Source: Corallococcus sp. bb12-1
GTDB taxonomy: Bacteria > Myxococcota > Myxococcia > Myxococcales > Myxococcaceae
DNA length: 45,337 nt
Direction: 5' to 3'
Assembly (NCBI RefSeq): GCF_026626765.1
Contig: NZ_JAPNJZ010000012.1
Span: 269,012-314,348 of the forward strand
Shown: one piece after another, positions 5,819-24,615 of the stretch
Numbering within the stretch: the stretch's first letter is position 1
Layout: each line of letters begins with the position of its first letter
Notes under the pieces: generated by a model
Told to the model about the DNA's origin: nothing
The model's input: the letters and a program-made list of their open reading frames with translations, nothing else
Databases searched by the model: none
Program-made: the position numbers and the translations under genes

Positions 5819-5827
5819 AAAAATAAA

Positions 5828-5858
5828 GGCCCTCTGGGAAACCAGGGGGCCTTTTTCT
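5828..5858 (+). terminator. Rho-independent terminator after the tRNA-Gly.
   Basis: Hairpin aggccctctgg-gaaa-ccagggggcct followed by TTTTTCTTTT. Confidence 0.6.
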
Positions 5859-5977
5859 TTTCCAGACGTGGTTCCCAGGAAGTGCACGCGAGGCTTGCGC
5901 GGCGCACCGTGGCGAGCGACCGGACGGGCGTGTCCGCGAGCGCCCGGAGGTCCCGTTGCTCACCTCTTCCGCTTCGC

Positions 5978-8933: not shown

Positions 8934-10369
8934 ACGCCATTCCAGAGGCGGTTCCCACAGCCGACGCCGGGGAGCGGCTGACCGCGCTGGTGCTGTCGCG
9001 CGTGCGCGCCGGGGCGGTGGTGTGCCTGGTGGGCGGGTCCACACCGCTGGCGGCGGCGCTGCGCACTCACGGGTGTGACGTGCGCGAGCAGCCCGGACCG
9101 GGGTGGACGCGGCCCGAGGGCGCCGAACCGTCCCACGTGGTGCTCACCGGTGACGCCGTGGCGCACGTGCTGACCGGCGGGCTGGAGGTGCTGCGGCAGG
9201 AGGCCCCCCGGGCCGAGGTGCTGTTCCAACTGCGCAACGCGGGCGCGGCCCGTGCGCTGCTGGAGACGTGGCTTGGCACCGCGCCCGTGCGCGCCGGCAT
9301 TTCGGAGCAGGGGATGCTGCGGCGGCTGTCCGACGCGGGCTATCGCATCGCCCACCGGGAGGTCCTGCCCTGCGCGTCGAGGTCCACCCCCCTGGCGGAG
9401 GACACCGAACAGGCGCTGCGGGCGTTGCTGGCCCAGCTCTCTCCGTCCACGCAGGTGGAGGAGGGCCTCTACGCCGTCGTCCCGGAGGCGCCCGCGCGGG
9501 CGCTTGAACCGGGGCTGCTGAGCGTCGTGCTCGTGCATGACCCGCGCGCCTCCGCCGCGACGCTGGATGAAGCCCTCTTCGCGTTGGCGTGTCAGGAGCA
9601 GCAGCCGCTGGAGCTCCTGCTCGCGGTGCCAGAGGGCGGTGAGCTGTCCGCCGCCGAAGCCTCGCTGCGGCGCTACGCGACGCTGGGCACCTTCCAGCCG
9701 CGCATGGTGCGTGCTCCGGCGGGCGACCTGCATGCGGAGGCCTTCCGTCAGGCCCGGGGCCAGTACCTGGCGCTCCTGGATGCCCGGTGCCTGGTGTATC
9801 CGCGCCACTACACACGGCTCGTCCATGCGCTCCAGGAGGGCAGCGCGGCCTGGGCGGTGGCCCGCTCCTTCCGCACCGAATGGGCGTCCGGTTCCGGGGC
9901 CATGCCCTATGTTCGCGCGAAGGTGCCGTTTCCGCTGGGTGAGCAGTTGGAGGTGCAGCACTTCGCGACCCATCCGGAGCTCATCCACGCGCTGGTCATC
10001 GACCGGACGCGGATCGGTCCCTTCCCGCTGACCGGGGTGGGGCAGGGTGGAGGGGTCGGGGACCTGGCGGTGCGGCTGGGTGCGCTCTTCGTGCCTGTGT
10101 TCCTCGCCGGCATCGCTTCGTGTGAAGTGCGTGGGCCGTGTCTGGCTCAGGGCGTCGGTGCGGCCCCCGTCGCGTCGGACCCCTGGCTGCTGCGCCGCGT
10201 GAGCGCCTGGACCGGCGCGGTCGGGCAGGCCCGCGAGGAGGCTCTGCTGGCGCGTGAGTTCCGCCACCGCCTCGTGGATGGGGTGAATGCGCGCCTTCAC
10301 GCCATCCCCTGGGTCCACGACACGCTGCGGGCGCTGGCGGACCGGCTCAAGCTCGACCGCAACTCCTGA
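8930..10369 (+). CDS. Hypothetical protein. N-terminal Rossmann-like region plus a C-terminal GT-A-like region with a degenerate DxD (LLDAR).
   Basis: GTG start overlapping the previous stop. 479 aa, no clear family match from inspection. The pattern hydrophobic-LALLDARCLVYPRHY resembles a GT-A DxD strand but lacks the second Asp. Confidence 0.5.
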   Translation: MNAIPEAVPTADAGERLTALVLSRVRAGAVVCLVGGSTPLAAALRTHGCDVREQPGPGWTRPEGAEPSHVVLTGDAVAHVLTGGLEVLRQEAPRAEVLFQLRNAGAARALLETWLGTAPVRAGISEQGMLRRLSDAGYRIAHREVLPCASRSTPLAEDTEQALRALLAQLSPSTQVEEGLYAVVPEAPARALEPGLLSVVLVHDPRASAATLDEALFALACQEQQPLELLLAVPEGGELSAAEASLRRYATLGTFQPRMVRAPAGDLHAEAFRQARGQYLALLDARCLVYPRHYTRLVHALQEGSAAWAVARSFRTEWASGSGAMPYVRAKVPFPLGEQLEVQHFATHPELIHALVIDRTRIGPFPLTGVGQGGGVGDLAVRLGALFVPVFLAGIASCEVRGPCLAQGVGAAPVASDPWLLRRVSAWTGAVGQAREEALLAREFRHRLVDGVNARLHAIPWVHDTLRALADRLKLDRNS

Positions 10370-10376
10370 GCCGGCC

Positions 10377-12650
10377 ATGAACCACTCCACCCACAGTGGG
10401 GGGCTTCCGCCGCCGCTCGACGCCTTCACGCAGGTGCTGGGCTTCGATGTGCCCCCGTCCCATCGGGCTCGCTGGGGCCCGGCCATCACCACCGCGAAGC
10501 GCCTGGGCACGGTGGGGCTCGGGCCCGTGCAGCGGCTGCTGCTTGCGCGTCAGGTCGGCTTCAACGGACTGCTGGCATCGCTCCTGCGGCACCCGGAGCG
10601 GACGCTGCCGGAGCGCGTGCGGAGGGAACTCGCACCGCTCGCGGAGCCTTTGCCGCTGGGCGCCCGGGCGACGTGGCTGCCGGCGGCGCCGGGCCTGCGC
10701 GAGCAGCGGGCCTGGAACGAGGCCCTCGTGGCGTTGCTGTCCGGGACGGAATGGCCCCTGCGGACCGACGGTGTGCGCGGGCCCCTGGAGGCCCTGGAAG
10801 CCCGCAGTGACGTGCTGGCGATGCAGGCCCCGGGGACCGTGGGGCTTCCGTTGTGGCGCGAGGTGTGGCGTCGGCAGATTGGCTTCAACCATGCCTGTGT
10901 CCGGACCTTGCGGCACATGCTGGGCGCGGCCCGTCCCGTCCTGGTGATGCCAGCGCCAGAGGCCTACGCGCGCGTTGCCCGCGAACAGGAGACACGTGAC
11001 ATCAGGGCCGCGACCGTCGCGCTCGAACGGCTGACACGGCGGCCCCTCTTCAGCATCGTCACGCCCGCATGGGAGACGCCGCTCGATGTGCTCCAGGCGT
11101 GCGTCGCGTCCGTGACGGCGCAGGTCTATCCGCACTGGGAGCTGTGCATCGTGGACGATGGCTCGCGGGGTGGGGATGTCGCCGCCGCGCTGCGACAGCT
11201 CGCCGCCGGGGATGCGCGCATCCGCTTCGAACGGCTGCCGGAGAACCAGGGCATCGCTCGCGCGACGAACGCCGCGCTGGCCATGGCCACGGGGGAGTAC
11301 GTCGGGTTCCTCGACCATGATGATCTGCTGGCCCCGCATGCGCTGGCGGAGGTGGCGCTGCGCCTGGCGTCCGCTCCCGACACGGAGGTCCTCTACTCGG
11401 ACGAGGACAAGGTGGATTCGGAGGGCCAGCGCTTCGCGCCCTACCTGAAGCCGGAGCTGTCGCCGGAGCTGCTGCGCGCGGTGAACTACGTGTGCCACTT
11501 CCTGGTGGTGCGCACGTCGCTGCTTCGCGAGGTTGGCGGCATCCGGCAGGGGTTCGAAGGCGCGCAGGACCATGAGCTGCTGCTGCGCCTGATGGAGCGC
11601 ACGAGACGCTTCGCCCACATTCCGAAGGTGCTCTACCACTGGCGCACGTTGCCCGGCTCCACCGCCACCGATGCCAGCGCCAAGCCCGCCGCGTCCGAGG
11701 CCGGTCGCCGCGCCGTGACGGCGCACCTCGAGCGGGTGGGGGAGACCGCGACGGTCGAGACCGCCGCGCCGGGGCTGTACCGGATCCGCCGTCCGATTGC
11801 GCATCGCCCACGCGTGTCCGTGCTGTTGTCGCGTGAGAGCACCGAGGCCGAACTCTCATCGCTGCTCGCCCTGACGGACAGCCTGGACGTGGAAGTGCTC
11901 GTGCCTGTCTCCGAGGGAGACGGGCCGGGGCGTTCATCGACGGATGCGCGGGCCTTGATGGATGCCGAGCTGACGCTCGACAGCGTGGACGTTTCGTCGT
12001 CGGTCGGTTCCTCCGCGAAGGTCGTGCGCATCTCGGTGGCTGATGCGCTGACTCCCGGCGCCGTGGCGAACAGGCTGCTGCGTGCATCGAGCGGGGAGCT
12101 GGTGCTGAGCCTGGAAGCCGGGACGCTGCCGACCGAACCGGGTTGGCTCGCGGAGCTGGCTTCACAGGCCCTGCGGCCCGACGTGGGCGTGGTGGGCGCG
12201 CGGATCCTTTCCCCTGGCGGGCACGTGCTGCACGCGGGCCTGTGCTTCGGCTCGGAGGGCCAGATGCTGCGGCCCTTCGCGGGGCTGCCGGATCCGTCGC
12301 TCCGGGACTTCGGCGGTTCGCACTGGCCGCGAGACCTGCTGGCCGTCTCCTGTGCCTGCGCGATGATCCGTCGCGACGTGCTGGAGTCCCTGAGCGGATG
12401 GGACGAGACCTTCATGTCGGAGGAGGCCCGGGGCGCGGAGCTGTGCTTGCGCGTGGGCGCTCGGGGCCTTCGCGTGCTGTACACCCCTCACGCGCGACTC
12501 GTGAGGACCCATGCGCGGGGTGGTGGCGACGACGCACGAGATGCCCTCCGACTGCGCGAGGCCTGGGCGCGTCACCCTCGCACCCCGCGAGGGGACCCCT
12601 TTGGCCATCCGTGCTTCGAACCGTCGGATGCGGAAGGAACGGGCCGATGA
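10377..12650 (+). CDS. Two-domain family 2 glycosyltransferase (O-antigen glycosyltransferase, rfbC/wbgA-like).
   Basis: GT2 domain FSIVTPAWETP...YPHWELCIVDDGS...FLDHDDLL...YSDEDK...QDHEL. A second GT2-like half follows (DVGVVGARILSPGGHVLHAGLCFG). 757 aa. Confidence 0.75.
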   Translation: MNHSTHSGGLPPPLDAFTQVLGFDVPPSHRARWGPAITTAKRLGTVGLGPVQRLLLARQVGFNGLLASLLRHPERTLPERVRRELAPLAEPLPLGARATWLPAAPGLREQRAWNEALVALLSGTEWPLRTDGVRGPLEALEARSDVLAMQAPGTVGLPLWREVWRRQIGFNHACVRTLRHMLGAARPVLVMPAPEAYARVAREQETRDIRAATVALERLTRRPLFSIVTPAWETPLDVLQACVASVTAQVYPHWELCIVDDGSRGGDVAAALRQLAAGDARIRFERLPENQGIARATNAALAMATGEYVGFLDHDDLLAPHALAEVALRLASAPDTEVLYSDEDKVDSEGQRFAPYLKPELSPELLRAVNYVCHFLVVRTSLLREVGGIRQGFEGAQDHELLLRLMERTRRFAHIPKVLYHWRTLPGSTATDASAKPAASEAGRRAVTAHLERVGETATVETAAPGLYRIRRPIAHRPRVSVLLSRESTEAELSSLLALTDSLDVEVLVPVSEGDGPGRSSTDARALMDAELTLDSVDVSSSVGSSAKVVRISVADALTPGAVANRLLRASSGELVLSLEAGTLPTEPGWLAELASQALRPDVGVVGARILSPGGHVLHAGLCFGSEGQMLRPFAGLPDPSLRDFGGSHWPRDLLAVSCACAMIRRDVLESLSGWDETFMSEEARGAELCLRVGARGLRVLYTPHARLVRTHARGGGDDARDALRLREAWARHPRTPRGDPFGHPCFEPSDAEGTGR

Positions 12651-14890
12651 GCGAAGTGCCTGAAGGCCGGCGCCAGAAGCTGGCCCGCCTGACGCGGGAT
12701 GCGGCCCACGAAGTGCGCATGGGCCTGACGCGGCCCATCGTCCACCTGTGGCCCGAGCCAGCCACGGGAGTGACCGCCGACAGCGGAGGCCCCTTCGAAT
12801 GGCACGCCGACGGCGCCGGTGCCCTCCTGGTCCTCACGTCCGACGCGGCACCGCTGCCCACGGGCTGGACGGAGCTCTCCTTCCGACTCCGCACCGAAGC
12901 CCCTGGCGCCGCATCGCCCGTGCTCGTCGTGGACACGGGCGTCGCGGGGGCTGAACAGAGCATCCGGCTTCCGCTGGATGCCCACGGTCGTGCTCGCGTC
13001 CTCGTGCGACTTCCGGAGGCCGTGCTCGCGCTGCGCCTGGGCCCGGTCAGCCGCGCCACGCGCTTCCGCCTCACCGATGTCCGTGCCGTACGCGTGGGCC
13101 GGACAGAGGCCGCGCTGCGCACCTCCTGGCCCCTGGCCCTACGACTCGCGCGGGAGCCCCAGCGCATTCCCCAGGTGGCCCGGCGCTACCTGGGCGCCCT
13201 GCGCACCGGGGGACTCCAGGGCGTGGACGGGGTGCTGGGCCAGAAGTCCCAGGGCACGCTCTCGCTCGAAAGCTACGACGACTGGGTGGCGCAGTACGAC
13301 ACGCTCACCGACGCGGACCGCGAGTCCCTGCGCCGCACGGTGGAGGCCCTGCCCTGGAAGCCAAGGGTGTCCGTGCTGATGCCCACCTACGACACGCCGG
13401 AGGTCTGGCTTCGGCGGGCCATCGACTCCGTGCGCGCGCAGCTCTATCCCCACTGGGAGCTGTGCATCGCGGACGACGCCTCCCGTCAGCCCCACGTGCG
13501 CGCCGTGCTGGAGGACTATGCCCGGCGCGATGCTCGCATCCGCTACGTCGTCCGGCCCGCCAACGGGCACATCTCCGCGGCCTCCAACTCCGCGCTGGAG
13601 CTGGCCAACGGCGAGTTCATCGCGCTCCTCGACCACGACGACGAACTCACCGAGGATGCCCTGGTCCGGGTGGTGGAAGTCCTCAACGCGCACCCCGACG
13701 CGGACGTCGTCTACAGCGACGAGGACAAGATCGAACCCCAGGGTCGCCGGTTCGATCCGTACTTCAAGCCCGCGTTCAACCTGGACCTGTTCCGCACCCA
13801 GAACCTCATCAGCCATCTGGGTGTCTACCGCACGGAGCGCGTGCGCGAGGTGGGCGGCTTCCGCGTGGGCTTCGAAGGCAGTCAGGACCACGACCTGGCC
13901 CTGCGCGTGGTGGAGCGCACCCCGCCCGAACGCATCCAGCACGTCCCGCGCGTGCTCTACCACTGGCGCGCCATCCCCGGTTCCACCGCGCTGGACGTGG
14001 GGGAGAAGGGCTACGCCAGCACCGCCGCGCGCAGGGCGCTCCAGGAGCACCTGGACCGGACGGAGCCCGGTGCGCGCATCGAGCCGGGACCCAACGCCTC
14101 GCTCCACCGCGTCCGCCATCCGCTGCCCACACCCCGGCCCCGCGTCACCGTCATCCTCCAGGCCCGGACCGCCTCCGAGGCCACGGCCCGTCTGGACGCC
14201 TGGCGGGCCACGGCGGACGGGTGGGACGTGGACTGGCGCGTGGCCTCGGGAAGTCCCGAACGGGTCTCCGCGTCCGCCAACGAAGCCGCGCGCGACGCCC
14301 CTGGCGAGGTGCTCGTCTTCCTCGACGCGGACCTGTCTCCGGACAGCGAGGACTGGCTCGCGGAGCTGGTATCGCAGGCCCTGCGGCCGGAGGTGGGCGC
14401 GGTGGGCGCGAAGCTGTTCGCGCCGGATGGCCGCGTCGAACACGCGGGCTTCGTGCTGGGCATGGGCGCGGACGGCGTCGCCGGAGGTCCGTACCGGGGC
14501 CTGTCCCGCGAATCCACCGGCCATGTCGGCCGCGCGGCGGTGCAGCAGCGGGTGTCCGCGGTGAGCGCGGCGTGTCTCGCCGTGCGACGGAGCGTCTTCG
14601 AGCGCGTGGGCGGCTTCGACGCGGGCGTCCTGCCCGGTCCCTGGCGTGACGTGGACCTGTGTCTGCGGCTCGCGGCGCACGGTCTGATGACCGTCTGGAC
14701 GCCGCACGCGGTGTTGATCCACGCCACCGTCCCCGCGTCACCTGAAGCAGACCTGCTGTCCTCCTCGGCGGCCACCGTGTTCAAGGCACGGTGGAAAGAA
14801 ACAGTGGACGACGACCCCTTCCACAGCCCCAACCACGCACTGGGAAACGGCCCCCTGCGCTTCGCCTGGCCCCCGCGTCCGGTGCGTTGA
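12647..14890 (+). CDS. Two-domain family 2 glycosyltransferase, tandem paralog of the preceding gene.
   Basis: ATG overlaps the previous stop (ATGA). Same motif series (VSVLMPTYDTP, YPHWELCIADDAS, LLDHDDEL, YSDEDKIEPQGRRFDPYFKP, QDHDLALR, second half VGAVGAKLFAPDGRVEHAGFVLG). Confidence 0.75.
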   Translation: MSEVPEGRRQKLARLTRDAAHEVRMGLTRPIVHLWPEPATGVTADSGGPFEWHADGAGALLVLTSDAAPLPTGWTELSFRLRTEAPGAASPVLVVDTGVAGAEQSIRLPLDAHGRARVLVRLPEAVLALRLGPVSRATRFRLTDVRAVRVGRTEAALRTSWPLALRLAREPQRIPQVARRYLGALRTGGLQGVDGVLGQKSQGTLSLESYDDWVAQYDTLTDADRESLRRTVEALPWKPRVSVLMPTYDTPEVWLRRAIDSVRAQLYPHWELCIADDASRQPHVRAVLEDYARRDARIRYVVRPANGHISAASNSALELANGEFIALLDHDDELTEDALVRVVEVLNAHPDADVVYSDEDKIEPQGRRFDPYFKPAFNLDLFRTQNLISHLGVYRTERVREVGGFRVGFEGSQDHDLALRVVERTPPERIQHVPRVLYHWRAIPGSTALDVGEKGYASTAARRALQEHLDRTEPGARIEPGPNASLHRVRHPLPTPRPRVTVILQARTASEATARLDAWRATADGWDVDWRVASGSPERVSASANEAARDAPGEVLVFLDADLSPDSEDWLAELVSQALRPEVGAVGAKLFAPDGRVEHAGFVLGMGADGVAGGPYRGLSRESTGHVGRAAVQQRVSAVSAACLAVRRSVFERVGGFDAGVLPGPWRDVDLCLRLAAHGLMTVWTPHAVLIHATVPASPEADLLSSSAATVFKARWKETVDDDPFHSPNHALGNGPLRFAWPPRPVR

Positions 14891-14892
14891 TT

Positions 14893-14941
14893 CGCTCGCT
14901 GGAGAAAGCCGCATGAGGGGTTCCCTCCCTGGAGAGCGAGC
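14893..14941 (+). other. Stem-loop (8-bp outer stem cgctcgct/agcgagcg) just downstream of the glycosyltransferase stop. Possible terminator/attenuator in the ~200-nt leader of the next gene.
   Basis: cgctcgctggagaaagccgcatgaggggttccctccctggagagcgagcg. An inner ggag/ctcc pairing is possible. No U-tract. Confidence 0.3.
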
Positions 14942-15095
14942 GGCCTGCCAGTCTTGACGCTCCCCAGGTGTGGTGACATGGAAGGGCGTTCACCATTGGG
15001 CAGGCGCCTGTTTGAAACTCCGCCTCCCGCGCCAACGCCTGGAGAGGGGGGCGTGCCTTCCATTCGCGAAGGCCGCGCCTTCCGGCACCACGACC

Positions 15096-18000
15096 ATGCA
15101 CCCACTGCTCAATCCCCTGGAACATCCTCTCAGCCTGACGCTCCCGAAGCGGCTGCTGGCCTCCTCCGCGTGGGTGGAGCACGTCCCGTTCGCGATGTTC
15201 ATCGTGGACGTGCTCCGGCCCGGGACACTGGTGGAGCTGGGGACGCACACCGGGGTGTCGTACTCCGCGTTCTGCCAGACGGTGGACGCGCTGAAGCTGG
15301 AGACCCGCTGCCACGCGGTGGACACGTGGCAGGGGGACCCGCATGCCGGGTACTACGGTCCGGACGTGCTCGCGGACCTGCGCGCGCACCATGACCCGCT
15401 CTACAGCGGGTTCTCGCAGCTGCACCAGAAGACCTTCTCCGAGGCCGCCGACTCCTTCGCGGACGGCTCCATCGACCTGCTCCACATCGACGGCTGCCAC
15501 GAGTACGAGCAGGTGAAGGCGGACTTCGAACAGTGGCTGCCCCGGATGAGCCCGCGCGGCGTCATCCTCTTCCACGACACCCGGGTGCGGGAGCGCAACT
15601 TCGGCGTCTGGCGGCTGTGGGAGGAGATTGAAGGCCGCTACCCCTCCTTCGAGTTCTTCCATGGCCACGGCCTGGGCGTCCTCGCCGTGGGGCCGGAGCA
15701 GCCGGAGGGCCTGCGCGCGCTGGTGGAGACGCGGGGCGAGGACCGGGAGCGCGTGAAGTCGGTCTTCGCCGCCCTGGGCGCGCGGCTGTCGCTCCTCCTG
15801 GAGGGCCAGACCCTGAGGACGGAGTACGGCCGGGTGAGCCAGCAGGTCGCGGAGGGTGCGCAGCGGATGGCGCGGCTCCAGGCGGAGCTGGAGGCCTCCA
15901 ACCAGCGGGCGCATGGCGCCGCCGCCGACCTGCGGGAACAGCAGGGGCGGCTCGCGAGGATGGGCCTGTCCCAGCAGATGCTGCAGGAGGAATTGGCGCG
16001 CAAGAACGCGCGCCTCGCGGAGCTCGACGCGCTGGCGTCGCACCAGGGAAGCCAGCTGGCGCACATCTCCGGAAGCCTCGCCTGGAAGACCATCAACCGG
16101 TACTGGTCCGTGCGCGAGCGCGTGCTGCCTCCTGGTACCCGGCGCGGCAACCTCTACCAGCGCGGCAAGCGGACGCTGCACTTCGTGGGCGCGAAGCTGG
16201 TGAAGCTGCCCACCGCGCGCCGCACGGCCCGCGCACTCAAGAGCGCCGCGTCCACGGCCGTCGTCCCGGCGCACGCCATGCCCCCGGTCCCCTCGGCACC
16301 CCCGGCACCCTGGACCCTGCCGCTGACGGAGCGCTCGCAGGCGAGCATGGGCCGGCGCGTCCTCATCATCGCGGAGCTGTCGCTGCCGCAGTGCAAGCGC
16401 TACCGCGTGGACCAGAAGGTCGCGATGTTCCACCGGCTCGGCTACGACGTCACCGTCCTGCGCTGGAACGACCACACCGACTGCAAGACGGCGCTCCAGT
16501 TCCACGGCCTGGTCATCTTCTACCGGGTCCCGGCGTTTCCCTCCGTCGTGGAGGTCATGGAGGAGACGAAGCGCCTGGGCATTCCCCACTTCTTCGACGT
16601 CGACGACCTCATCTTCGACGTGGAGGAGTACCAGCGGAACACCAACGTGCAGGCGCTGCCCCAGGCCGAGCGCGATCTGCTGCTCAACGGCGCCAGGCTC
16701 TACCGCAAGGCGCTCAGCCTGTGCGAACACGCCATCGCCAGCACGCCGACCATCGCGGAGCACATGGCCCGCGTCGTTCCGGGGAAGGTCTACGTCGTCG
16801 AGAACTGCCTGGACGACGGCATCCTGGCGCTGGCCCGGGAGATGGAGCAGCGGCCGTTCTCGGTGGCTCCGGGCACGGTCACCATCGGCTACGGCAGCGG
16901 CACCAAGACGCACGATGCCGACTTCACCATCGCGGCGGACGCCATCCTCGCGGTGATGGAGCGCCACGCGAATGTGCGCCTGGCCATCCACGGCTTCCTG
17001 GAGCTGCCCAAGGGATTCGAGCGCGTCTCCGACCGCGTCTTCCGCATCCCGTTCCTGGATGCCGAGGACTACCTGCGCGCGCTCGCGTCGTGGCAGATCA
17101 GCATCGCGCCGCTGGAGGCCACGCTCTTCAACGACGCCAAGAGCAACATCAAGTTCATCGAGGCGTCCATCTTCCGCGTGCCCGCGGTGTGCTCGGGCTC
17201 GGGTCCGTTCCGGGAGATCATCGAACACGGCCGCAACGGGATGATCGCCACGACCCGCGAGGAGTGGGAAGCGGCCCTGTCCGCGCTGGTGGCGGACGAA
17301 GGCCTGCGCAAGCGGATGGGCGAGGAAGGGCACCGCAGCGTGATGGCGCGCTACCACCCGGCGGTGGTGGCCACGGAGCGGCTCCAGCCCATCCTCCAGC
17401 ACCTGCCGCCCGCGTCTCCTCCGCGCCTGAAGGTGCTGGAGGCCAACGTCCTCTTCGCGCCCCTGAGCTTCGGCGGGGCCACGCTCGTCGCCGAACAGTT
17501 GTCGCACCGGCTCCAGGCGGAGGGCTGCGACGTCACGGTGTTCACTGGCCTCATGAACTCGCCGCTGCCACCCTACGCGGTGGTGCGCTACGAGACGCAG
17601 GGCCTGCCCGTCATCGCCACGCAGCTGCCTCACGGTGGCGACCGCGCGCTCGACTACCAGAACCCGCGCATGGGGGAGACCTTCACCCAGGTCCTCAAGG
17701 CGGTGCGGCCGGACGTGGTGCACCTGCACTCCATCCAGATGCTGAGCGCGTCGCTCGCGACGGCGTGCGTCGCCGAAGGCATCCCCTACACCATCACCCT
17801 GCACGACGCGTGGTGGCTGTGCGAGCGGCAGTTCATGGTCAAGGAGGACGCCACCTACTGCAACCAGAAGGGAATCGACCTGCGCGTCTGCTCCAAGTGC
17901 GTGGCGGACACGCGCTTCACCTTCAAGCGCACGTTCGCGCTGCGCAAGGTGCTGGATGGCGCGGCCCTGCTGCTCACGCCCAGCGAATTCCAGCGCCAGC

Positions 18001-18677
18001 TCTACATCGCCAATGGCATCGCGCCGGAGCGCATCGTCGTGAACAAGAACGGCGTGCACCTGCCGTCCCAGTCCCGGCCCGAGCGCCGCGACAAGGCACC
18101 GCTGCGCTTCGCGTACCTGGGCGGCCGCGCCGTGCACAAAGGCTACTTCTGGCTCAAGGACATCCTCGAAGCGATGCCGGAGTCCCAGTACGTCCTGAAG
18201 ATGACCGACATCCAACTGCGCATGGGCTCATCCTCCATTGATGCCAGGGATTGGAAGATCGCGGGCCGCGTGGAAGTCGTCCCGCCCTACGATCAGGAGG
18301 GGATGGATGCCTTCTTCGAAGGCATCGACGTGCTGCTCATGCCCTCCCAGTGCAAGGAGAGCTTCGGGCTGACGGTGCGCGAGGCGCTGGCCCGCGACGT
18401 CTGGGTGGTGACGACGTCGTCGGGGGGCGTCGACGAGGAGATCGTCGAGGGCGTGAATGGCAACCTCGTGGAGATGAACGACCCGGAGGGGTTCCGTCGC
18501 GCCTTGGGTGAGCTGCTGGCGCACCCGGAGCTGCTGGCGCACTACCGCAATCCCCGGCGTACCGCCGTGCGCGACTACGCGACCCAGGCCGACGAGCTTC
18601 GGGCCCTGCTGACGGCCCTCGTGAGCACGCCGGCCCGGAAGCGGGACGCGGGCCCCATCGCGGCCAGACAGTCGTGA
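15096..18677 (+). CDS. Multidomain O-antigen assembly protein: N-terminal class I SAM-dependent (sugar O-)methyltransferase domain, ~110-aa coiled-coil, and two GT4-type (GT-B) glycosyltransferase domains.
   Basis: MT domain with [15 protein letters not shown] (SAM-binding Gly-rich loop) and [13 protein letters not shown]...ILFHDT. Heptad-rich segment [15 protein letters not shown]...[19 protein letters not shown] domains with a GT-B fold ([23 protein letters not shown]; [17 protein letters not shown] with the E-x7-E motif). Start uncertain; an alternative GTG lies at 14970. Confidence 0.8.
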
Positions 18678-18729
18678 CGTGAAGTCGCCGGGCCTGCTGC
18701 CCACCCGGGGGCCCGGCGCTGGAGCGGAT

Positions 18730-18753
18730 GGGGCCTGGAAGTCACCAGGCCCC
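18730..18753. terminator. GC-rich perfect hairpin between convergent genes. Candidate bidirectional terminator without a U-tract.
   Basis: ggggcctgg-aagtca-ccaggcccc (9-bp stem), in the 87-nt gap between the plus-strand fusion gene and the minus-strand DUF2142 gene. Confidence 0.3.
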
Positions 18754-18764
18754 GGAGCCGCCGC

Positions 18765-20160
18765 TCACACCGCGCCGTAGTAGCGCTGGTACACGGTGGT
18801 GAGCGTCACCCCTACGGAGAGCAGGATGAAGCCGGCGATCAACACCGGCTTGAGCCGCGCCAGCGCGCGCGGTGCCCAGGCGGGCGGGGCCAGGGCCACC
18901 ACCAACAGGGGCGCATAGGGCAGCAGGTAGCGGCCCTGCACGCCGTCCACGCGGTCCGCCCCCGGGGGCGTCCACGCCAGGTAGAGCATGGCCTGGATGG
19001 CGAGCACGCCCGCCACGGCGACGCCCAGCGCCACCACGCGCACGCGCCAGCCCACCGTGGGCGAAGGGGCCGCGTCCAGCGCCATCACGCCCAGGAGCAG
19101 CGCGCCCAGGCCCAGGAGCGCGGGCCTCGGCACCGGGGTGTCCAGCCAGCCGAACACGCCGCCCGCCTGATGAAGGAAGTCCGGCAGTCGCATCCAGAAG
19201 TCCGAGACGAGCACCCCCATCACCTGGAAGGGGTGCGCGCGGACGTGGGCCACCTGCGCCACGACTTCGCTCGGACGGAAGATGTCCCGCACCGTGCTGG
19301 ACCACGCGAACTGGAGCAGCGCGGGGACGGCCACGATGGCGACGGCGGCCAGCGCATAGCGCCCAGGCGTCCCCATCCGGGTGAGCGGCAGCAGCAGGAA
19401 CACGAGTGACAGGGGCAGGTAGGCCTGCTTGCACAGGGCCACGAACACCGCGCTCAAGAGCAGCAGGCCCAGCTGCTTCGCCCCGAGCGGCCCCGGGTGC
19501 GCGAAGGTGTAGTGCAGCGACAGCGCCAGCAGCAGCAGGCACGCCGACAGGGTGATGGGATCCGCGGACACGGAGGCCCGCTGGAACAGCACCATGGGCG
19601 TGAGCGCCAGCAGCGCGAAGGCCCACCGCTGGAAGGGCATCAACCGCAGCGCCAGCGCCGTGAGCGCCAGCGCCACCAGCACGTTGCCCAGCCGGCCCGC
19701 CCACAGCACCACCACCGGCGGCGCCTCCAGGATTCGCGCGGGCGCCATGCCCAGCGACTGCGGGAAGTACACCAGCGGGAAGTAGATGGCGGACGCGGCG
19801 AAGTGCCACTCCACGGTGTCCCGGGGCGCGAGCGCGGTGTGCATGGCGTCGCGCAGGCGCTGCCGGTCCTGCCGCACGTTGGCGTGGCCCCCGACGCCCT
19901 CCGACACGTGCTCCGCCACCTGGATCACGCTGCGCGGAAGCTGACCGCCCGCGGACGCTGTCGGCAGCCGCGTGGCCGTCAACTGGCCCTCGGAGACCTG
20001 GTACGCGCGGTAGAAGTGCGCCGGTTCGTCCGCCACCTGGAACGGTGGCGTGAGGAAGCTCAGCACCCCGCCCAGCACGGCGGCCACGATCAGGAAGACG
20101 TTGATGGGCGCGATGAAGAACGGACGCAGGGAAGACGGGGTCGGCGAAGACGCGAGCATG
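18765..20160 (-). CDS. DUF2142-family polytopic membrane protein (putative GT-C-like glycosyltransferase).
   Basis: 465 aa (start could be upstream, to 20261). About 10-12 TM helices with a periplasmic-loop motif region (FQVADEPAHFYRAYQVSEG). Genomic linkage to a GT2 polyprenyl-phosphate glycosyltransferase and DUF2304. Confidence 0.65.
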
Positions 20161-20184
20161 GATGGGAAGTCGTTCCGCGAAGGC

Positions 20185-20595
20185 TCAGGCGGCGTGGGGG
20201 TCGTGCCGGGCGGCGGCGGGGACGGAGTCGGGGCGGGGCAGGGGGCGCGTGAGGCGCTCATGCTCCGCGGAGGTGAGCAGGGCCACCTCCTGCGCCAGCC
20301 GCTTGAGCTGCTGGCGCTGCTCCGCCACCTGGAGGCTCAGCCGGTACACGACCCACATCAGGGCCGACAGGGCGAGGAAGAAGAGGGCCGAGGGCGCGTA
20401 GTAGATGCCCATGGCCGACGCCAGCGTGTCGATGCCGTGGCGCCACAGGGACAGGCCCGCGATGGTCGCCGAGACGAGCAACCACGCGAAGGTGTGACGC
20501 TCGCTGGTGCGCCGGCCCCGGGCCGACCACAGCACCGTGAACGCGAAGGCGGCCGCGAAGGCCACGCCAATGAGGCTGGAGCGAAGCATGGGCAT
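20185..20595 (-). CDS. DUF2304-family small membrane protein.
   Basis: 136 aa with 3-4 TM helices (MPMLRSSLIGVAFAAAFAFTVLW...). Start overlaps the stop of the upstream GT2 gene (TGATG). This is the typical partner of GT2/DUF2142 operons. Confidence 0.6.
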   Translation of the reverse strand: MPMLRSSLIGVAFAAAFAFTVLWSARGRRTSERHTFAWLLVSATIAGLSLWRHGIDTLASAMGIYYAPSALFFLALSALMWVVYRLSLQVAEQRQQLKRLAQEVALLTSAEHERLTRPLPRPDSVPAAARHDPHAA

Positions 20596-20597
20596 CA

Positions 20598-21293
20598 GAC
20601 GGGACGGACCCGCTCCATGAGCAGGGCGAAGGACACCTTCGCCATGTAGAACGCCGACTTCCACGGCGTCAGCGAGCTGGTGCCGGTGAGGCGCGGCCGC
20701 ATGCGCACGGCCACCTCCGCGATGCGGAAGCCCTGCCGCGCCGCCATGAGGACGCTCTCGGGTTCCGGGTAGTCGTGGGGGTGGGTGCGCGCGAAGAAGC
20801 GGATGGCCTGGGGTCCGAAGCCCCGGAAGCCGGAGGTCGGGTCGGTGATGCGCTGGTGGCTCAGCGTGGACAAGAGCCCCGCGATGAACCGGTTGCCAAA
20901 GCGGCGCAGCCACGTGGAGCGGAAGCTCGTGACGCCCGCGAACCGGCTGCCGATGACGAGCTCCACGCCGGACTGGAGCGCTTCGCGCAGGGCGGGGACG
21001 GACGCGGGGTCATGCTGGCCGTCGCCGTCCATGCGGATGACCTGCGCGTAGCCATGCCGCGAGGCATAGAGCAGGCCGCTCGCCTCGCCCGCGGCGACGC
21101 CCAGGTTGAAGGGGTGGGTGAGGACGTGCGCGCCCGCGGCCCGGGCGTGGTCCGCCGTCTGGTCCCGCGAGCCGTCATCCACGACGAGCACGTCCAGGTC
21201 CGGCAGGGCTTCACGCAGCTCCGCCACCGTGGAGCCAATGCATTCCTCTTCGTTGTAGGCCAGCAACACGATGAGGCCCCGTCGGGTGTCCAT
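20598..21293 (-). CDS. GT2 polyprenyl-phosphate glycosyltransferase (DPM1/GtrB/ArnC-like).
   Basis: LIVLLAYNEEECIGSTV, VVDDGSRDQTADHA, MDGDGQHDP, TDPTSGFRGF. These are classic Dpm1/GtrB motifs. GGGAAG ribosome-binding site 5 nt upstream of the ATG. Confidence 0.8.
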
Positions 21294-21360
21294 GCTTCCC
21301 ACTCCTGTCTCGTCGGGGCTTCTACCGTCTACCACCCGTGCCGAACAACCCTCCTACCCC

Positions 21361-22284
21361 CTACGCCCGAGCCTGCCCCACGCGCGCGATGAAGATCCAG
21401 GCGTCCTGCAGTCGCAGGCCCTCCGCCACGGCGCCCAGTCCCTGGCCTGCCAGGGTGACGAGCGGCCGGGGGAGCCGTCGTGCGGCGTGGGCCCGGTCGG
21501 CGAGGCTGCCCGCCTCGAAGTCCAGGTCGCCGAAGGCGTCCACCGGTTCCAGGCCCACGCGCCGCAGCAGGGCCTCCATGGAGGCCCGGGTGAAATAGCT
21601 CTCGTGCGGAGGGAAGGAGCCGCACTGGTACAACTGCTCCAGGAGCTGGGGCGTGCCCAGGCCGGCCATCACCCGGGAGACGCGGTACAGCAGGCCGCTG
21701 GCCACGGGCACCTTGAGCACCACCCACTCCAGCTCCGGAGCGAGCTGGCCGACGAGGTGGCGCACCATGTCCGCCAGGTGGGGGCCCGGGAAGTGTTCCA
21801 CCACGTCCAGCAGCGTGAGGATGCGCGGGCGGAACGGCAGCGCCTCCAGCGGCAGGGGCCACCGTCCCCCTTCGGGCAGGGCCAACTGCACGGAAGGGAT
21901 GCCCGCGTCGCGCAGCAGGTTCACGGACAGCTCGGAGATGTCCGCCCCCGCGAGCTCCGTCACGCCCGCGTCGCGGCAGCCTTCCAGGAACCAACCCCGG
22001 CCCGCCCCGAAGTCCAGCAGCCGGGCGGGCTGGGGCACGTGGCGGCGCAGGCGCTCGACGATGGCGCGGGCCTGTCGCTGCCGCGTGGCGCGCAGCGAGT
22101 CCATGAAGCCGCCGCTGTCGTACTGGGCATGGTAGTCGGCCGTGTTGCGCGGAGCGCGGTGCGCAGCGGCGCGGTGGCCGCAGCGTGCGCAGGTCTCCAC
22201 GTCCAGCCGGGCGCCCTGGAAGGTCGGCTGGAGCGTCTGGGAATCACAGGCAGGACAGGCAGGGGACGTCATGGTGGCCGACAC
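21361..22284 (-). CDS. Class I SAM-dependent methyltransferase with an N-terminal Cys4 zinc ribbon.
   Basis: CPACDS...CARCGH zinc-ribbon. SAM motif I LLDFGAGRGWF. Acidic motif II LLDVVEHF. Confidence 0.7.
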   Translation of the reverse strand: MSATMTSPACPACDSQTLQPTFQGARLDVETCARCGHRAAAHRAPRNTADYHAQYDSGGFMDSLRATRQRQARAIVERLRRHVPQPARLLDFGAGRGWFLEGCRDAGVTELAGADISELSVNLLRDAGIPSVQLALPEGGRWPLPLEALPFRPRILTLLDVVEHFPGPHLADMVRHLVGQLAPELEWVVLKVPVASGLLYRVSRVMAGLGTPQLLEQLYQCGSFPPHESYFTRASMEALLRRVGLEPVDAFGDLDFEAGSLADRAHAARRLPRPLVTLAGQGLGAVAEGLRLQDAWIFIARVGQARA

Positions 22285-22331: not shown

Positions 22332-22865
22332 CTACCGGCCACGGCGCCTGGACTTGCCGCGAGGCGGCTGCGCGCCCGTGTCTTCCCCGGAGGGCTTCGC
22401 GGGGGGCTCGACCTCCGGAGTCCTCGGAGGCAGGTGGGCGTCAAGCTGCTCCAGCCGCTTCTCCACTTCCTGGCGCCACAGCGTCTGCGTGCGCGCATGC
22501 ACGCGCTGGTGTTCATGGATGAGCGCGAGCGCGTCCAGGATGGCTTCGTTGAACTCCACCTGACGCCGGAGCGCTTCATTGATGAAGGGCTGGAACGCGA
22601 GCCGGAAGGCGCGCTTGGCCATCACCAGCGCGGGGCCCACCACGGGCCGGTGGGACGACGGCGCGTCCGCGTAGCGCGCATCGCGCTTGATGCGCGCGCC
22701 CTCCAGGAAGGGGGGCCACGCGGCGGCGGAGGGTTTTTCGTGGGTGGCGGCGAAGCGCTGTCGGAGCGCGTCCACGGCGTCCGGCCTGGGCGTCGGAAGC
22801 TGGCGCAGGGACTCGGTGATCTCCTCCGCGGTGGGCCGGGTGCTGATGAGGTCTTCAGCGCGCAT
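22332..22865 (-). CDS. Hypothetical protein (177 aa).
   Basis: ORF with a good RBS (GGGAGGA 7 nt upstream of the ATG). 11-nt overlap with the upstream GT4 gene. No recognisable domain. Confidence 0.4.
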   Translation of the reverse strand: MRAEDLISTRPTAEEITESLRQLPTPRPDAVDALRQRFAATHEKPSAAAWPPFLEGARIKRDARYADAPSSHRPVVGPALVMAKRAFRLAFQPFINEALRRQVEFNEAILDALALIHEHQRVHARTQTLWRQEVEKRLEQLDAHLPPRTPEVEPPAKPSGEDTGAQPPRGKSRRRGR

Positions 22866-24501
22866 GCGTGCGTCCTCCCGCTTCCAGGGCCTGGGCCACA
22901 TCCGTCGCGAGCGCGTCCACGTCCGCTCCGGGGGACAGCTCCCACAGGCGGGCGCCCAGCGCCTGCCGCACCCCTTCGTCCGGCGCGCGGCGGGTTTCCC
23001 AGACGCCGCCCGCGACGGTGCGGGAGTGGAGTCGGGTCACGGTCCGCCGCGCCACCTCTTCATCCGCGCCCGCGAACAGCACGGGGCCGGTGGCGCAGCA
23101 CACGGCCGTCTCCAGGGACGAGGACGGGGGCACGTCCTGGCCCTCGCGCGACGCCGGCTCATCCGGGGTGAAGTGCCACACCGACGCACCGTCGCTCCGC
23201 GCCTCTTTCGGCGCCAGTTGCAGCGGCATCACCTGGCGGCGCACCGTCCAGAGCCTCGCGCCGGGCAGCCGGTCCACCACGGCGCGCGCAAGGCGGGACA
23301 TGGGCGCGTCAGGCGCGGTTTCGAAGCCCGGGCACACCACCGTGGGGCCGTCGGGGCCGCGCTTCTCGCGCGCCGGGGCCCGGCCCTCCAGGAAGGGCGC
23401 CAGGGCCTCGCGCAAGCGTCGGGCGACCGTCTCCTGATTCAACGGGGCCAGCCGCTCGCGCTGGGCGTCCACCACCCGCGCTCGCAGGGCCGGGTCGCGC
23501 TCCAGCACCGCGAGCAGCCCGGCCACCTCCACGGGGTCGTCCGTCAGCGTGGTGAGGCCCGCGCCGCCCATCGTCTCCGGCACCGCCGCGGCGCCGTACG
23601 CCACCACGGGCACGCCCCGGTACATGGCCTCCAGCAGGGGCACGCCGAAGCCCTCGTGGCGGCTCATGGAGAGGTAGGCCGTGGCGGAGGCGAAGCACGC
23701 GGACAGCTGGGCCGAATCCACCCGCCCCAGGAAGACGACGCGGTCGGGGCCCAGTTGCTCGCGCAGCGCGAGCACGGAGGCGTCATAGGGGGCGCTGTTG
23801 GACAGCGTCCCCGCCACCAGCAGCCGGCTGCGCGGCTGGTACAGGCGCTGGTACGCGGTGAAGACGCGCAGCACGTCCTCCAGGCGTTTGCTGGGCACGG
23901 TGCGGCCCACGAAGAGGATGTTCGCGCACCCGTCATCCATCTGCGCCCGGAGCGCGGGATCCGCCGGCACGTTGAACGCGTTCCAGTCCACCGCGAAGGG
24001 CAGCACCGCCGCGTCCCGGTAGCCCGCGGCGGTCAGCTCCTCCGCGCTGAAGTGCGAGTAGGCCCAGGCGTGCGTCACGTGGTCGCGCAGCGCTCGCAGC
24101 TCCTCGCGCGCCACCGTGCAGCCGCTCGCCACGTGGCGGTCCGAGCCCTCGAAGAACCGGGCCGGCGTGACGTTGTGGTACAGCAGCGCCTTGCGCCCCT
24201 TCGCCCGGGCCACGATGGGGACGAGCCGCGACGCGAAGCTGTGGTGGATGAGCAGCGCGCTGTCCGCGTCCGCCTCGCGCGGGTAGTCGTGGGCGGGCCG
24301 CACCTGATCGCGGCAGGACTCGTCCCACTGGTCCGCGTAGATCTCCGAGGCGAAACCCCACCCGCGCAGCAGGTCCCGCAGGTAGCGCACCTGATTGCCC
24401 ACGGCGTCGCCCCAGGCCAGGCGCGCTACCAGCTGGTGGACCCTCCCGACGCTCGGGGAGGCGGTCCCTCGCTTGCTGTTCCAGAGGCTCACGTTGGCCA
24501 T
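22855..24501 (-). CDS. GT4-family (GT-B) glycosyltransferase with a ~170-aa C-terminal extension of unknown function.
   Basis: ILFVGRTVPSKRLEDVL, LLVAG, and EGFGVPLLEAMYRGVPVVAY (E-x7-E). The ORF start could also be 24519. Confidence 0.75.
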   Translation of the reverse strand: MANVSLWNSKRGTASPSVGRVHQLVARLAWGDAVGNQVRYLRDLLRGWGFASEIYADQWDESCRDQVRPAHDYPREADADSALLIHHSFASRLVPIVARAKGRKALLYHNVTPARFFEGSDRHVASGCTVAREELRALRDHVTHAWAYSHFSAEELTAAGYRDAAVLPFAVDWNAFNVPADPALRAQMDDGCANILFVGRTVPSKRLEDVLRVFTAYQRLYQPRSRLLVAGTLSNSAPYDASVLALREQLGPDRVVFLGRVDSAQLSACFASATAYLSMSRHEGFGVPLLEAMYRGVPVVAYGAAAVPETMGGAGLTTLTDDPVEVAGLLAVLERDPALRARVVDAQRERLAPLNQETVARRLREALAPFLEGRAPAREKRGPDGPTVVCPGFETAPDAPMSRLARAVVDRLPGARLWTVRRQVMPLQLAPKEARSDGASVWHFTPDEPASREGQDVPPSSSLETAVCCATGPVLFAGADEEVARRTVTRLHSRTVAGGVWETRRAPDEGVRQALGARLWELSPGADVDALATDVAQALEAGGRTHAR

Positions 24502-24615
24502 GGCGTTTACAACCGGCACGCACCGGGGACAAGTGGGCGCGGCCTTGCCTTGACGGGGCTCCCCTGCCTCCGCTACGGAGGGCGCTTTCTCCTGCGTCCG
24601 AGTGGTGGCTTGTCA
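24502..24615. promoter_or_regulatory. Divergent promoter region between the GT4 gene (minus) and rmlB (plus).
   Basis: A 114-bp gap containing ccttgccTTGACGg (-35-like). No confident -10. Confidence 0.3.

Follow-up and report, generated by a model that had tools for sequence, protein, structure and literature searches.

A methyltransferase–helical spacer–double glycosyltransferase protein encoded between wzm/wzt and rml genes in Corallococcus, and its candidate role as terminator, ruler and polymerase

The locus and the fusion gene

The window that we have analysed is a stretch of 45,337 nucleotides from Corallococcus sp. bb12-1, in which a long gene for a multi-domain protein is located between the genes of an ABC-type glycan exporter and the genes of dTDP-L-rhamnose synthesis. 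The features of the locus are the following, in the order of their positions in the window:

5774-6778, + strand: wzm, the ABC-2 permease of the glycan exporter (Pfam ABC2_membrane, 1.7e-16), syntenic in Corallococcus relatives
6694-8085, + strand: wzt, an ABC ATPase with a C-terminal Wzt_C carbohydrate-binding domain (ABC_tran 8.9e-22, Wzt_C 2.1e-16)
7968-8933, 8930-10369, 10287-12650 and ~12650-14890 (the last start being approximate), + strand: four GT2-family genes (Pfam GT2)
15096-18677, + strand: the fusion gene
18765-22284, - strand: an optional block with a DUF2142 membrane protein (18765-20261), a small GT2 (20595-21335) and a Methyltransf_23 protein (21361-22284), as matched by Pfam
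22855-24519, - strand: a stand-alone GT4-type glycosyltransferase (Glycos_transf_1, 1.4e-20), kept in loci L004-L006 and L010
24613-28059, + strand: rmlB, rmlD, rmlA and rmlC, for dTDP-L-rhamnose synthesis (Pfam Epimerase/GDP_Man_Dehyd, RmlD_sub_bind, NTP_transferase and dTDP_sugar_isom; the starts of rmlB and rmlC are approximate)

The wzm/wzt exporter is encoded upstream of the fusion gene and on the same strand, an arrangement that is syntenic in relatives, and the Pfam matches place the GT2 genes after it, in agreement with the initial annotation, which had located the gene downstream of wzm-wzt and serial glycosyltransferases. The nucleotide-binding domain of Wzt matches the Aquifex Wzt structures (1e-58), while its Wzt_C domain (aa ~316-440, Pfam) is of the type known to read chain-terminating caps. 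The last two of the four GT2 genes each match GT2-type Pfam models in two separate regions, and the order of the four is kept in loci L003-L006 and L010; the rml proteins of relatives are 88-98% identical. Neither an O-antigen ligase nor a priming enzyme was recognised among the locus genes examined. The Methyltransf_23 protein was considered as a terminator and rejected: it has no heptad region, and the whole DUF2142/GT2/Methyltransf_23 block is missing from loci L005 and L006, which apart from it are syntenic and in which the Wzt binding domain is still 93-95% identical, so that the cap presumably read by this domain is not made by the Methyltransf_23 enzyme.

The fusion gene occupies the open reading frame 14970-18677 (+), with an ATG at 15096 that yields 1193 aa; the start methionine at this position is common to the homologues, and a 1193-aa protein of Corallococcus sp. 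bb12-1 at NCBI is 100% identical. With a GC3 of 0.93 in its frame, 15096-18677 (+) is a genuine protein-coding gene. The antisense open reading frame 14781-18215 failed the GC3 filter as a gene candidate, and those antisense frames that pass the filter show GC2 > GC1. A promoter/terminator scan over 14700-19000 returned no hits.

Domains of the encoded protein

The 1193-aa protein consists of a Methyltransf_24 domain, a heptad helix, a basic Pro-rich linker and two GT-B domains, in this order:

15096-15734, + strand: N-terminal class I SAM-dependent O-methyltransferase domain, aa 1-213 (Pfam Methyltransf_24), a putative chain-capping module
15735-16076, + strand: heptad-periodic alpha-helical spacer, aa 214-327 (AF2 helices, heptad register), a putative coiled-coil "ruler"
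16077-16349, + strand: basic, aromatic, Pro-rich linker, aa 328-418, with the conserved post-coil motif [13 protein letters not shown]...LPPGTRRG
16350-17420, + strand: GTa, the first GT-B domain, aa 419-775 (Pfam Glyco_trans_1_2), divergent GT4-like
17421-18677, + strand: GTb, the second GT-B domain, aa 776-1193 including the stop codon, canonical GT4 with E1088-x7-E1096

The AF2 model of the whole protein has a mean pLDDT of 85.9, the methyltransferase and both GT-B domains being confident, and it agrees with the Pfam matches on the layout that had been proposed initially, i.e. a methyltransferase, a coiled-coil-like spacer and two GT-B domains.

The N-terminal domain belongs to the metal-dependent O-methyltransferase fold: the Pfam Methyltransf_24 match (aa 46-162, 8e-27) is accompanied by a Rossmann-type fold, a Gly-rich SAM loop and acidic/His metal-binding residues, as expected for Methyltransf_24 and metal-dependent class I O-methyltransferases. 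The three motifs quoted in the initial annotation are all present (LVELGTHTG at aa 45-53, [13 protein letters not shown] at aa 128-140 and ILFHDT at aa 157-162), and the SAM and metal motifs are intact. A single-sequence search of this domain against the PDB sequences returned one non-significant match (E 0.72), and a 19-sequence profile was required to reach significance; the sole solved structure that is significantly matched in this way is the sugar O-methyltransferase MeT1. Rhamnose O-methyltransferases are found among the fold neighbours, and the sugar O-methyltransferase relatives are MeT1, SpnH and CalS11, which favours a sugar-type methyltransferase. The resemblance to MeT1 (mannoside 1-O-methyltransferase of Mycobacterium hassiacum, PDB 6g7d) amounts to 16% identity; unlike the Corallococcus fusion protein, MeT1 is a stand-alone cytoplasmic enzyme, and its substrate is the reducing-end 1-OH of a storage polysaccharide. 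A kinase hidden between the methyltransferase and the helix is ruled out, because the ~50 residues that separate the Pfam match from the helix leave no room for it.

The spacer is modelled by AF2 as two helices (aa 214-279 and 287-325), whose combined length of ~112 aa fits the coiled coil of "~110 aa" that had been described. Its heptad register is unchanged over aa ~236-325, and within aa 237-327 the residues Leu, Ile, Val and Met occupy 15 of the 26 a/d positions and 3 of the 65 others, an enrichment matched by 0 of 5000 shuffles; no other protein encoded in the locus has a long heptad stretch. The spacer is also the fastest-evolving segment of the protein, with indels among close relatives, and the linkers of the homologues, which match coiled-coil Pfam families, vary in length from 112 to >340 aa; such variability and fast evolution are expected for a spacer that is held only by its heptad pattern. 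These features suggest a coiled-coil-like, extended segment between the methyltransferase and the glycosyltransferase modules. Three features of the same region count against a ruler coiled coil: the low monomer pLDDT in the AF2 model (40-70 across the helix), the helix break at aa 280-286 and the seven Gly residues of the heptad region.

The linker that follows, of ~90 aa, contains 16 K/R against 2 D/E, as well as 11 Pro, and is modelled as short helices followed by disorder at aa 369-410. Right after the helix, S327 is invariant and W330 nearly so, and the post-coil motif is retained in homologues that have no methyltransferase; we consider this linker to be a possible membrane-association or docking segment.

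The two glycosyltransferase modules differ in how closely they resemble family GT4. GTa is modelled as two Rossmann lobes (pLDDT ~90+), with a Pfam Glyco_trans_1_2 match at aa 618-761; its profile search reaches MshA (7e-10), as well as PimB' and BshA, and its invariant residues include R477, D503, D504, H606, D609, K682, K686 and E689. Of the E-x7-E motif, the second Glu (E689) is present on a GT-B fold and the first is absent, hence GTa is only GT4-like. GTb, whose domain core spans aa 776-1180, combines the GT-B fold with the E-x7-E motif in the C-terminal lobe, as CAZy describes for GT4-like enzymes; it matches Glyco_transf_4 (aa 792-989) and Glycos_transf_1 (aa 1047-1151) in Pfam, its best Foldseek matches are GlgM, MshA, sucrose-phosphate synthase and ManT, and it carries four invariant Cys residues (909, 922, 932 and 935). 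GT4-type modules are retaining enzymes, and alpha-L-rhamnosyl links from dTDP-beta-L-rhamnose would not result from them. This retaining type counts against a polymerase role, as do the six other glycosyltransferase genes of the locus (four GT2 upstream, one GT4 and another GT2); because of these six genes, the "single polypeptide" of the initial annotation is overstated and unlikely.

Relatives of the fusion protein

The methyltransferase and coiled-coil part of the protein is very common, as it is found in 3544 protein clusters at E<=1e-30, and relatives are encoded in 319 stretches of species-representative genomes. The locus is syntenic in Corallococcus and Pyxidicoccus, and in Caballeronia/Burkholderia and in Halomonadaceae the rml and wzm/wzt genes adjoin methyltransferase-bearing homologues. 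Hundreds of species keep GTa and GTb together as a conserved pair, in many cases with few further glycosyltransferases in the vicinity, and some homologues are fused to WsaF-type domains (WsaF_N/WsaF_C). In the loci of Burkholderiaceae and Luteibacter the same protein occurs, but with a Wzt that has no C-terminal extension; the pairing of the methyltransferase with a Wzt binding domain is thus not universal among the loci searched, and methylation does not have to serve as a signal for export. A published study of the Paraburkholderia phymatum O-antigen gives no information about methyl caps. One subclade of homologues has lost the methyltransferase motifs, and the Variovorax homologues, with degenerate methyltransferase motifs, lie outside any wzm/wzt/rml cluster.

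We tentatively suggest, at rather less than even odds, that Methyltransf_24, coiled coil and GTa form a terminator/ruler cassette of its own kind, which is highly modular and occurs very widely. Its head domain would be non-homologous to the terminators of WbdD and O7 ORF6; its partners can be GT4, WsaF-type or GT2 modules, and it can function whether or not Wzt has a binding domain. The post-coil motif (STSWRxTxPxR / SGSLAWKT...LPPGTRRG) would be a membrane or docking element of the glycosyltransferase part, and in Variovorax and other lineages, as judged from their sequences, the cassette may no longer catalyse methyl transfer and may have moved out of the ABC-transporter locus. If such a cassette exists, the natural spacers, with ~30 to 270 heptad-patterned residues, would amount to a cross-phyla test of the molecular-ruler rule.

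Known counterparts and function

The closest parallels that we have considered, O7 ORF6, WsaE and WbbB, have been compared with the Corallococcus protein through their published descriptions. The ORF6 protein of Klebsiella pneumoniae O7, for which both terminator and polymerase roles have been shown in vitro (Kelly et al. 2024, J Biol Chem; PMC11231755), likewise unites in one polypeptide a methyltransferase-bearing terminator at the N-terminus, a coiled coil in the middle and two glycosyltransferase modules at the C-terminus, and it is encoded in a wzm/wzt and rml locus for a rhamnose-containing O-polysaccharide. It differs in its extra kinase domain and Ig-like module and in adding a methyl-phosphate, the Corallococcus protein being kinase-free; its methyltransferase is CgnL-like, whereas that of Corallococcus is Methyltransf_24/CCoAOMT-like, and its glycosyltransferase modules are GT2 (GT-A) instead of two GT-B.

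WsaE of Geobacillus stearothermophilus NRS 2004/3a consists of a methyltransferase and two rhamnosyltransferase domains (Steiner et al. 2008, via PMC2943079, PMC3898925), and the same sources describe that its N-terminal methyltransferase makes a terminal 2-O-methyl cap, which Wzt is thought to read. It shares with the Corallococcus protein the N-terminal O-methyltransferase, the two glycosyltransferase domains, the adjoining wzm/wzt, the nearby rmlABCD and an ABC-transporter-dependent rhamnan pathway, and the WsaF-type fusions among the homologues echo the WsaE/WsaF pairing. Unlike the Corallococcus protein, WsaE forms alpha-1,2 and alpha-1,3 L-rhamnosyl links (inverting) of an S-layer glycan in a Gram-positive host; its methylation in vitro is independent of chain length, and PMC2943079 and PMC3898925 do not mention a ruler helix.

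The third counterpart, WbbB of K. pneumoniae O12 and Raoultella terrigena, combines terminator, coiled-coil ruler and two polymerising C-terminal glycosyltransferase modules in one polypeptide, the same layout as that of the Corallococcus protein, but its terminator is a beta-Kdo glycosyltransferase (GT99) instead of a methyltransferase. In the WbdD/WbdA system of E. coli O8/O9a (K. pneumoniae O5/O3), the cap is a methyl (O8) or a methyl-phosphate (O9a), added by WbdD from the end of a coiled-coil ruler; the WbdA-type polymerase consists of GT4 modules and the binding domain of Wzt reads the cap (PMC3482155). WbdD is a stand-alone terminator with a methyltransferase of its own type, to which a kinase may be added, a coiled coil, a C-terminal membrane helix and no glycosyltransferase modules, which does not describe the Corallococcus protein; membership in the WbdD family is ruled out by its glycosyltransferase fusion, the absence of a kinase and the different methyltransferase subfamily. 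Both the domain layout and the reasoning behind it are in print, and the Corallococcus protein is an ordinary member of a described class of enzymes that assemble and cap surface glycans and probably restrict their length: because the same layout has been characterised in O7 ORF6 (2024) and WsaE (2008), the terminator-ruler-polymerase reading is not new, and the "methyltransferase-capped version" proposed initially is not a novel form of the fused proteins.

By analogy with these systems, we consider that the protein is probably (with a probability of about 0.6) a cytoplasmic enzyme with three functions, probably also oligomeric, which assembles a surface polysaccharide that contains rhamnose and depends on the ABC transporter; this polysaccharide is most likely the O-antigen of the LPS. 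At the membrane, the two GT-B modules of the C-terminal part would act on an undecaprenyl-linked chain, with GTa, GTb and the neighbouring GT2 and GT4 enzymes extending the glycan; the heptad helix of ~90-112 residues, as a coiled coil, would hold the methyltransferase roughly 130-165 Å away from the glycosyltransferase modules, where it would be reached only by chains of sufficient length. Methylation of the non-reducing terminal sugar would block extension, and the C-terminal carbohydrate-binding domain of Wzt would recognise the cap, leading to export of the chain. Among the mechanisms considered, that of terminator, ruler and polymerase is the best supported; it is from WbdD, WbbB, O7 ORF6 and WsaE that we infer the capping, the function of the ruler, the association of the linker with the membrane, the donor sugars and the O-antigen product. 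Reports of O-methyl sugars in Myxococcus LPS, which had been offered as support, are not evidence here, since the organism is Corallococcus.

A different division of labour, which we regard as somewhat unlikely, makes the protein mainly a terminator and scaffold in a multiprotein complex, where the upstream multi-domain GT2 enzymes polymerise, and GTa and GTb build an adaptor or add non-rhamnose or beta-linked residues. The four GT2 genes between wzt and the fusion gene, two of them with double GT2 matches, and the GT4 gene downstream are in line with such a complex, as is the resemblance of both modules to retaining GT4 enzymes, given that alpha-L-rhamnans need inverting ones; in K. pneumoniae O4 and O7, moreover, polymerase modules can be split among several proteins. 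However, the spacer-fused glycosyltransferase modules belong to the polymerase in WbbB, O7 ORF6 and WsaE, and the GTa-GTb pair is conserved also where few other glycosyltransferases are nearby. Less probable still is that the methyltransferase modifies internal sugars of the repeat unit during or after elongation, as in the mycobacterial 3-O-methylmannose polysaccharide, with the helix only oligomerising or scaffolding the glycosyltransferases. The fold neighbours of the domain are generic O-methyltransferases, the closest of which, MeT1, comes from a pathway with internal methylation too; the second methyltransferase of the locus implies methylation at more than one site, and the Burkholderiaceae Wzt without a binding domain, beside the same protein, makes the reading of a cap non-obligatory. 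Against internal methylation, a long, length-variable helical spacer always divides the methyltransferase from the glycosyltransferases, a geometry whose characterised cases are terminators; the Wzt of the Corallococcus locus does carry a binding domain, and the methyltransferase at the same position in WsaE makes a terminal cap.

As for the product, we think it improbable, and more so than either of these alternatives, that Wzm/Wzt exports a glycan other than the LPS O-antigen (capsule-like, secreted or protein-linked). The genes examined include no O-antigen ligase or priming enzyme and WsaE acts on an S-layer glycan and not on LPS, but the Wzm/Wzt of Myxococcus xanthus, with a Wzt_C domain, is an O-antigen exporter whose ligase and priming genes are separate, located, as we assume, elsewhere on the chromosome; the synteny between Corallococcus and Pyxidicoccus with variable glycosyltransferase content is, furthermore, typical of O-antigen loci.

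Should the terminator-ruler-polymerase mechanism be correct, the main surface polysaccharide of a predatory myxobacterium would owe both its length and its terminal epitope to this gene, which would bear on how the organism moves and develops and on how it interacts with phages and prey. Next to the Klebsiella and E. coli models, the family would stand as a counterpart that adds a plain methyl group, has no kinase and is built on GT-B modules; its natural variants, which number in the thousands and differ in spacer length and partner modules, would be useful for tests of the ruler model and for the engineering of glycans of defined length. In routine annotation, the protein receives a generic name only.

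Gene and domain architecture

The protein is encoded on the forward strand, in a reading frame that is open from 14970 and ends with the stop at 18677. We have placed its start at the ATG at 15096 (1193 aa), because alignments with the nearest homologues begin at the first residue of each, the NCBI entry for Corallococcus sp. bb12-1 is an identical protein of 1193 aa, and a copy of 97% identity occurs in Corallococcus terminator CA054A (locus L003). The frame has a GC3 of 0.93 and the usual GC1 > GC2 pattern, in a window of approximately 70% G+C; of the antisense ORFs, a 1144-aa one over the gene failed the GC3 filter, and those that passed have a GC2 > GC1 pattern. A gap of 205 bp (14891-15095) is located 5' of the gene, while further upstream wzm and the genes after it, up to the third GT2 gene, mutually overlap; a scan of 14700-19000 found no sigma-70-like promoter or intrinsic terminator.

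The gene, the three quoted motifs and the domain layout described in the initial annotation are all confirmed by the ORF, Pfam and an AlphaFold2 model (54-sequence alignment, mean pLDDT 85.9):

aa 1-213: methyltransferase domain, confident in AlphaFold2 (Pfam Methyltransf_24, aa 46-162, 8e-27)
aa 214-279 and 287-325: long helices (AlphaFold2, pLDDT 40-70)
aa 328-343 and 349-368: further helices (AlphaFold2, pLDDT 40-70)
aa 369-410: disordered stretch (AlphaFold2)
aa 419-770: first GT-B domain (GTa), confident in AlphaFold2 (Pfam Glyco_trans_1_2, aa 618-761)
aa 779-1177: second GT-B domain (GTb), confident in AlphaFold2 (Pfam Glyco_transf_4 and Glycos_transf_1, aa 792-1151)

The pLDDT of the helices is as would be expected for a coiled coil that is modelled as a monomer. 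NCBIfam returned only GT4 equivalogs, all sub-threshold. GTb carries the motif E1088-x7-E1096, has MshA, GlgM and related enzymes as its top structural matches, and is a canonical GT4; GTa, which matches MshA at 7e-10 in a profile search and lacks the first Glu of the E-x7-E motif, is a divergent GT4-like GT-B domain. Four cysteines in a loop-rich insertion of the GTb N-lobe (C909, C922, C932 and C935; window 17820-17900) do not vary across 54 homologues; together they might bind zinc, which, to our knowledge, would be unusual in GT4 enzymes.

The helical spacer and the post-coil linker

The heptad register of the spacer is unchanged across aa ~236-325: in aa 237-327, Leu, Ile, Val or Met occupy 15 of the 26 a/d positions, against 3 of the 65 others, a distribution that was equalled by none of 5000 shuffles, and no other protein of the locus has a comparable stretch. 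The helix would span ~135-165 Å, calculated from 91-112 residues at ~1.5 Å per residue. Relative to the nearest relatives, the spacer has 56% identity, with indels, and the catalytic domains 80-87%; the helical segment is the fastest-evolving part of the protein. Homologues have 112 to more than 340 residues between the methyltransferase and GTa, and the linkers of some of them match eukaryotic coiled-coil Pfam families. No gene of the locus diverges more than this one among the Corallococcus relatives (73-78% identity in L005 and L006, against 84-98% for its neighbours), with divergence and indels concentrated in the spacer and the linker.

The linker that follows (aa 328-418) is rich in Pro and aromatic residues, has 16 K/R against 2 D/E, and may associate with the membrane. 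Its conserved opening motif, with an invariant S327 and a nearly invariant W330, reads [13 protein letters not shown]...LPPGTRRG in this protein (aa 325-350; window 16068-16145) and STSWRxTxPxR in proteobacterial homologues. Homologues in which the methyltransferase and the greater part of the coil are missing (P0064, P0068) still have the motif, so it belongs to the GT portion, possibly as a membrane or docking element.

Locus, known systems and proposed mechanism

The genes of the locus are, in order:

CDP-alcohol phosphatidyltransferase gene
wzm
wzt, whose product carries a Wzt_C carbohydrate-binding domain
four GT2 genes (in two of them, Pfam GT2 models match two distinct regions)
the gene under study (15096-18677, forward strand)
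DUF2142 membrane protein, small GT2, Methyltransf_23 protein and GT4, opposite strand
rmlB, rmlD, rmlA and rmlC

Corallococcus and Pyxidicoccus share this gene order. The DUF2142/GT2/Methyltransf_23 block (18765-22284, reverse strand), whose small GT2 is GtrB-like, is present here and in L004 and L010, although L010 gave no match to the Methyltransf_23 protein at 45% identity or more; L003 has DUF2142 alone, after which the contig ends, and the syntenic L005 and L006 have no such block. The block resembles a module that modifies side chains after polymerisation, and is a likely source of serotype variation.

The layout of the protein is already established experimentally. Kelly et al. (2024, PMC11231755) showed that ORF6 of Klebsiella pneumoniae O7, which carries a methyltransferase-kinase at its N-terminus, a coiled coil, and two rhamnosyl GT2 modules at its C-terminus, both terminates and polymerises; they regard a coiled-coil protein with a distal-end terminator as the hallmark of a strategy found widely among bacteria. 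WbbB (O12) is an all-in-one protein that caps with Kdo, and WbdD/WbdA the split counterpart. In Geobacillus stearothermophilus, the methyltransferase-GT-GT enzyme WsaE uses its N-terminal domain to add the terminal 2-O-methyl cap to a rhamnan that is exported through Wzm/Wzt (PMC2943079, PMC3898925). In contrast to these systems, the head is here a plain Methyltransf_24/CCoAOMT-like methyltransferase without a kinase, the two modules are GT-B and not GT-A, and a basic linker follows the coil; membership of WbdD was rejected. The initial annotation named the right class of mechanism, but the methyltransferase-capped fusion that it proposed is not new, being preceded by O7 ORF6 and WsaE, and its argument from methylated sugars in Myxococcus LPS does not apply to a Corallococcus.

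The anatomy, motif integrity, context and conservation of the protein are directly observed, and those features that are open to computational testing all support a place among the coiled-coil terminator-polymerase fusions. The best-supported mechanism, to which we assign a probability of about 0.6, is that of a terminator, ruler and polymerase: the GT modules would lengthen a lipid-linked chain at the membrane, with the spacer keeping the methyltransferase at a distance from them, until methylation of the non-reducing end stops growth; in this organism, the methylated end would then be the ligand of the Wzt binding domain, ahead of export. The Wzt of L005 and L006 is 96-97% identical to that of this locus (binding domain, 93-95%), and since these loci have no Methyltransf_23 enzyme, the ligand of that domain, whatever its nature, is independent of it. 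Methylation of internal rather than terminal residues is unlikely.

The locus contains six other GT genes, so that the term "single polypeptide" of the initial annotation is overstated; because of these genes, and of the retaining GT4 character of both modules, it is fairly likely that polymerisation resides largely in the GT2 proteins, the fusion being the terminator and a partial polymerase or adaptor builder, which is compatible with the terminator-ruler model. That the product is O-antigen we infer, as we do the sugars involved, by analogy; a non-LPS glycan seems distinctly improbable.

Modularity of the family

Relatives are encoded in 319 matched stretches of species-representative genomes, and full-length homologues (40-78% identity) occur in Myxococcota, Variovorax, Paraburkholderia/Caballeronia, Rhodopila and others. 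The family is modular: the methyltransferase-helix-GTa unit is followed by GT4, WsaF-type domains or GT2 in different homologues, GTa-GTb without the methyltransferase occurs in many Acetobacteraceae, Nitrosomonas and other genomes, and the methyltransferase-plus-helix part alone is found in 3544 clusters (E<=1e-30, 50%-identity representatives), mostly of long multidomain proteins. Tentatively, and with somewhat less than even odds, the methyltransferase-helix-GTa unit may be a terminator cassette in its own right, very large as a family and highly modular; its natural variation could then serve to test the ruler model.

Methyltransferase-bearing homologues of Caballeronia/Burkholderia and Halomonadaceae adjoin rml and wzm/wzt. 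As a caveat, in a comparison of loci L001, L013, L019, L023, L028, L029, L035, L039 and L055 with L003-L011, L016, L027 and L030, Wzt has a C-terminal extension of ~170-200 aa in Myxococcota and Halomonadaceae and none in the Burkholderiaceae and Luteibacter loci that encode the same methyltransferase-coil-GT-GT protein; the extension is also present in several loci without the methyltransferase (Nitrosomonas, others).

A second caveat is a subclade of full-length homologues (P0016-P0025, P0037, P0058, P0009; loci L002, L009, L012) that has lost key methyltransferase residues (D76, W78, D81 and D161) and whose Variovorax members lack wzm, wzt and rml genes within 10 kb, which points to a catalytically inactive head domain and an altered role. 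In P0066, from a hydrothermal vent metagenome, GTa-GTb is preceded by an N-terminal non-methyltransferase domain of ~100 aa and heptad stretches (aa 99-276), with no Pfam match in aa 1-350; this domain may serve the same GT pair as a different kind of terminator head.
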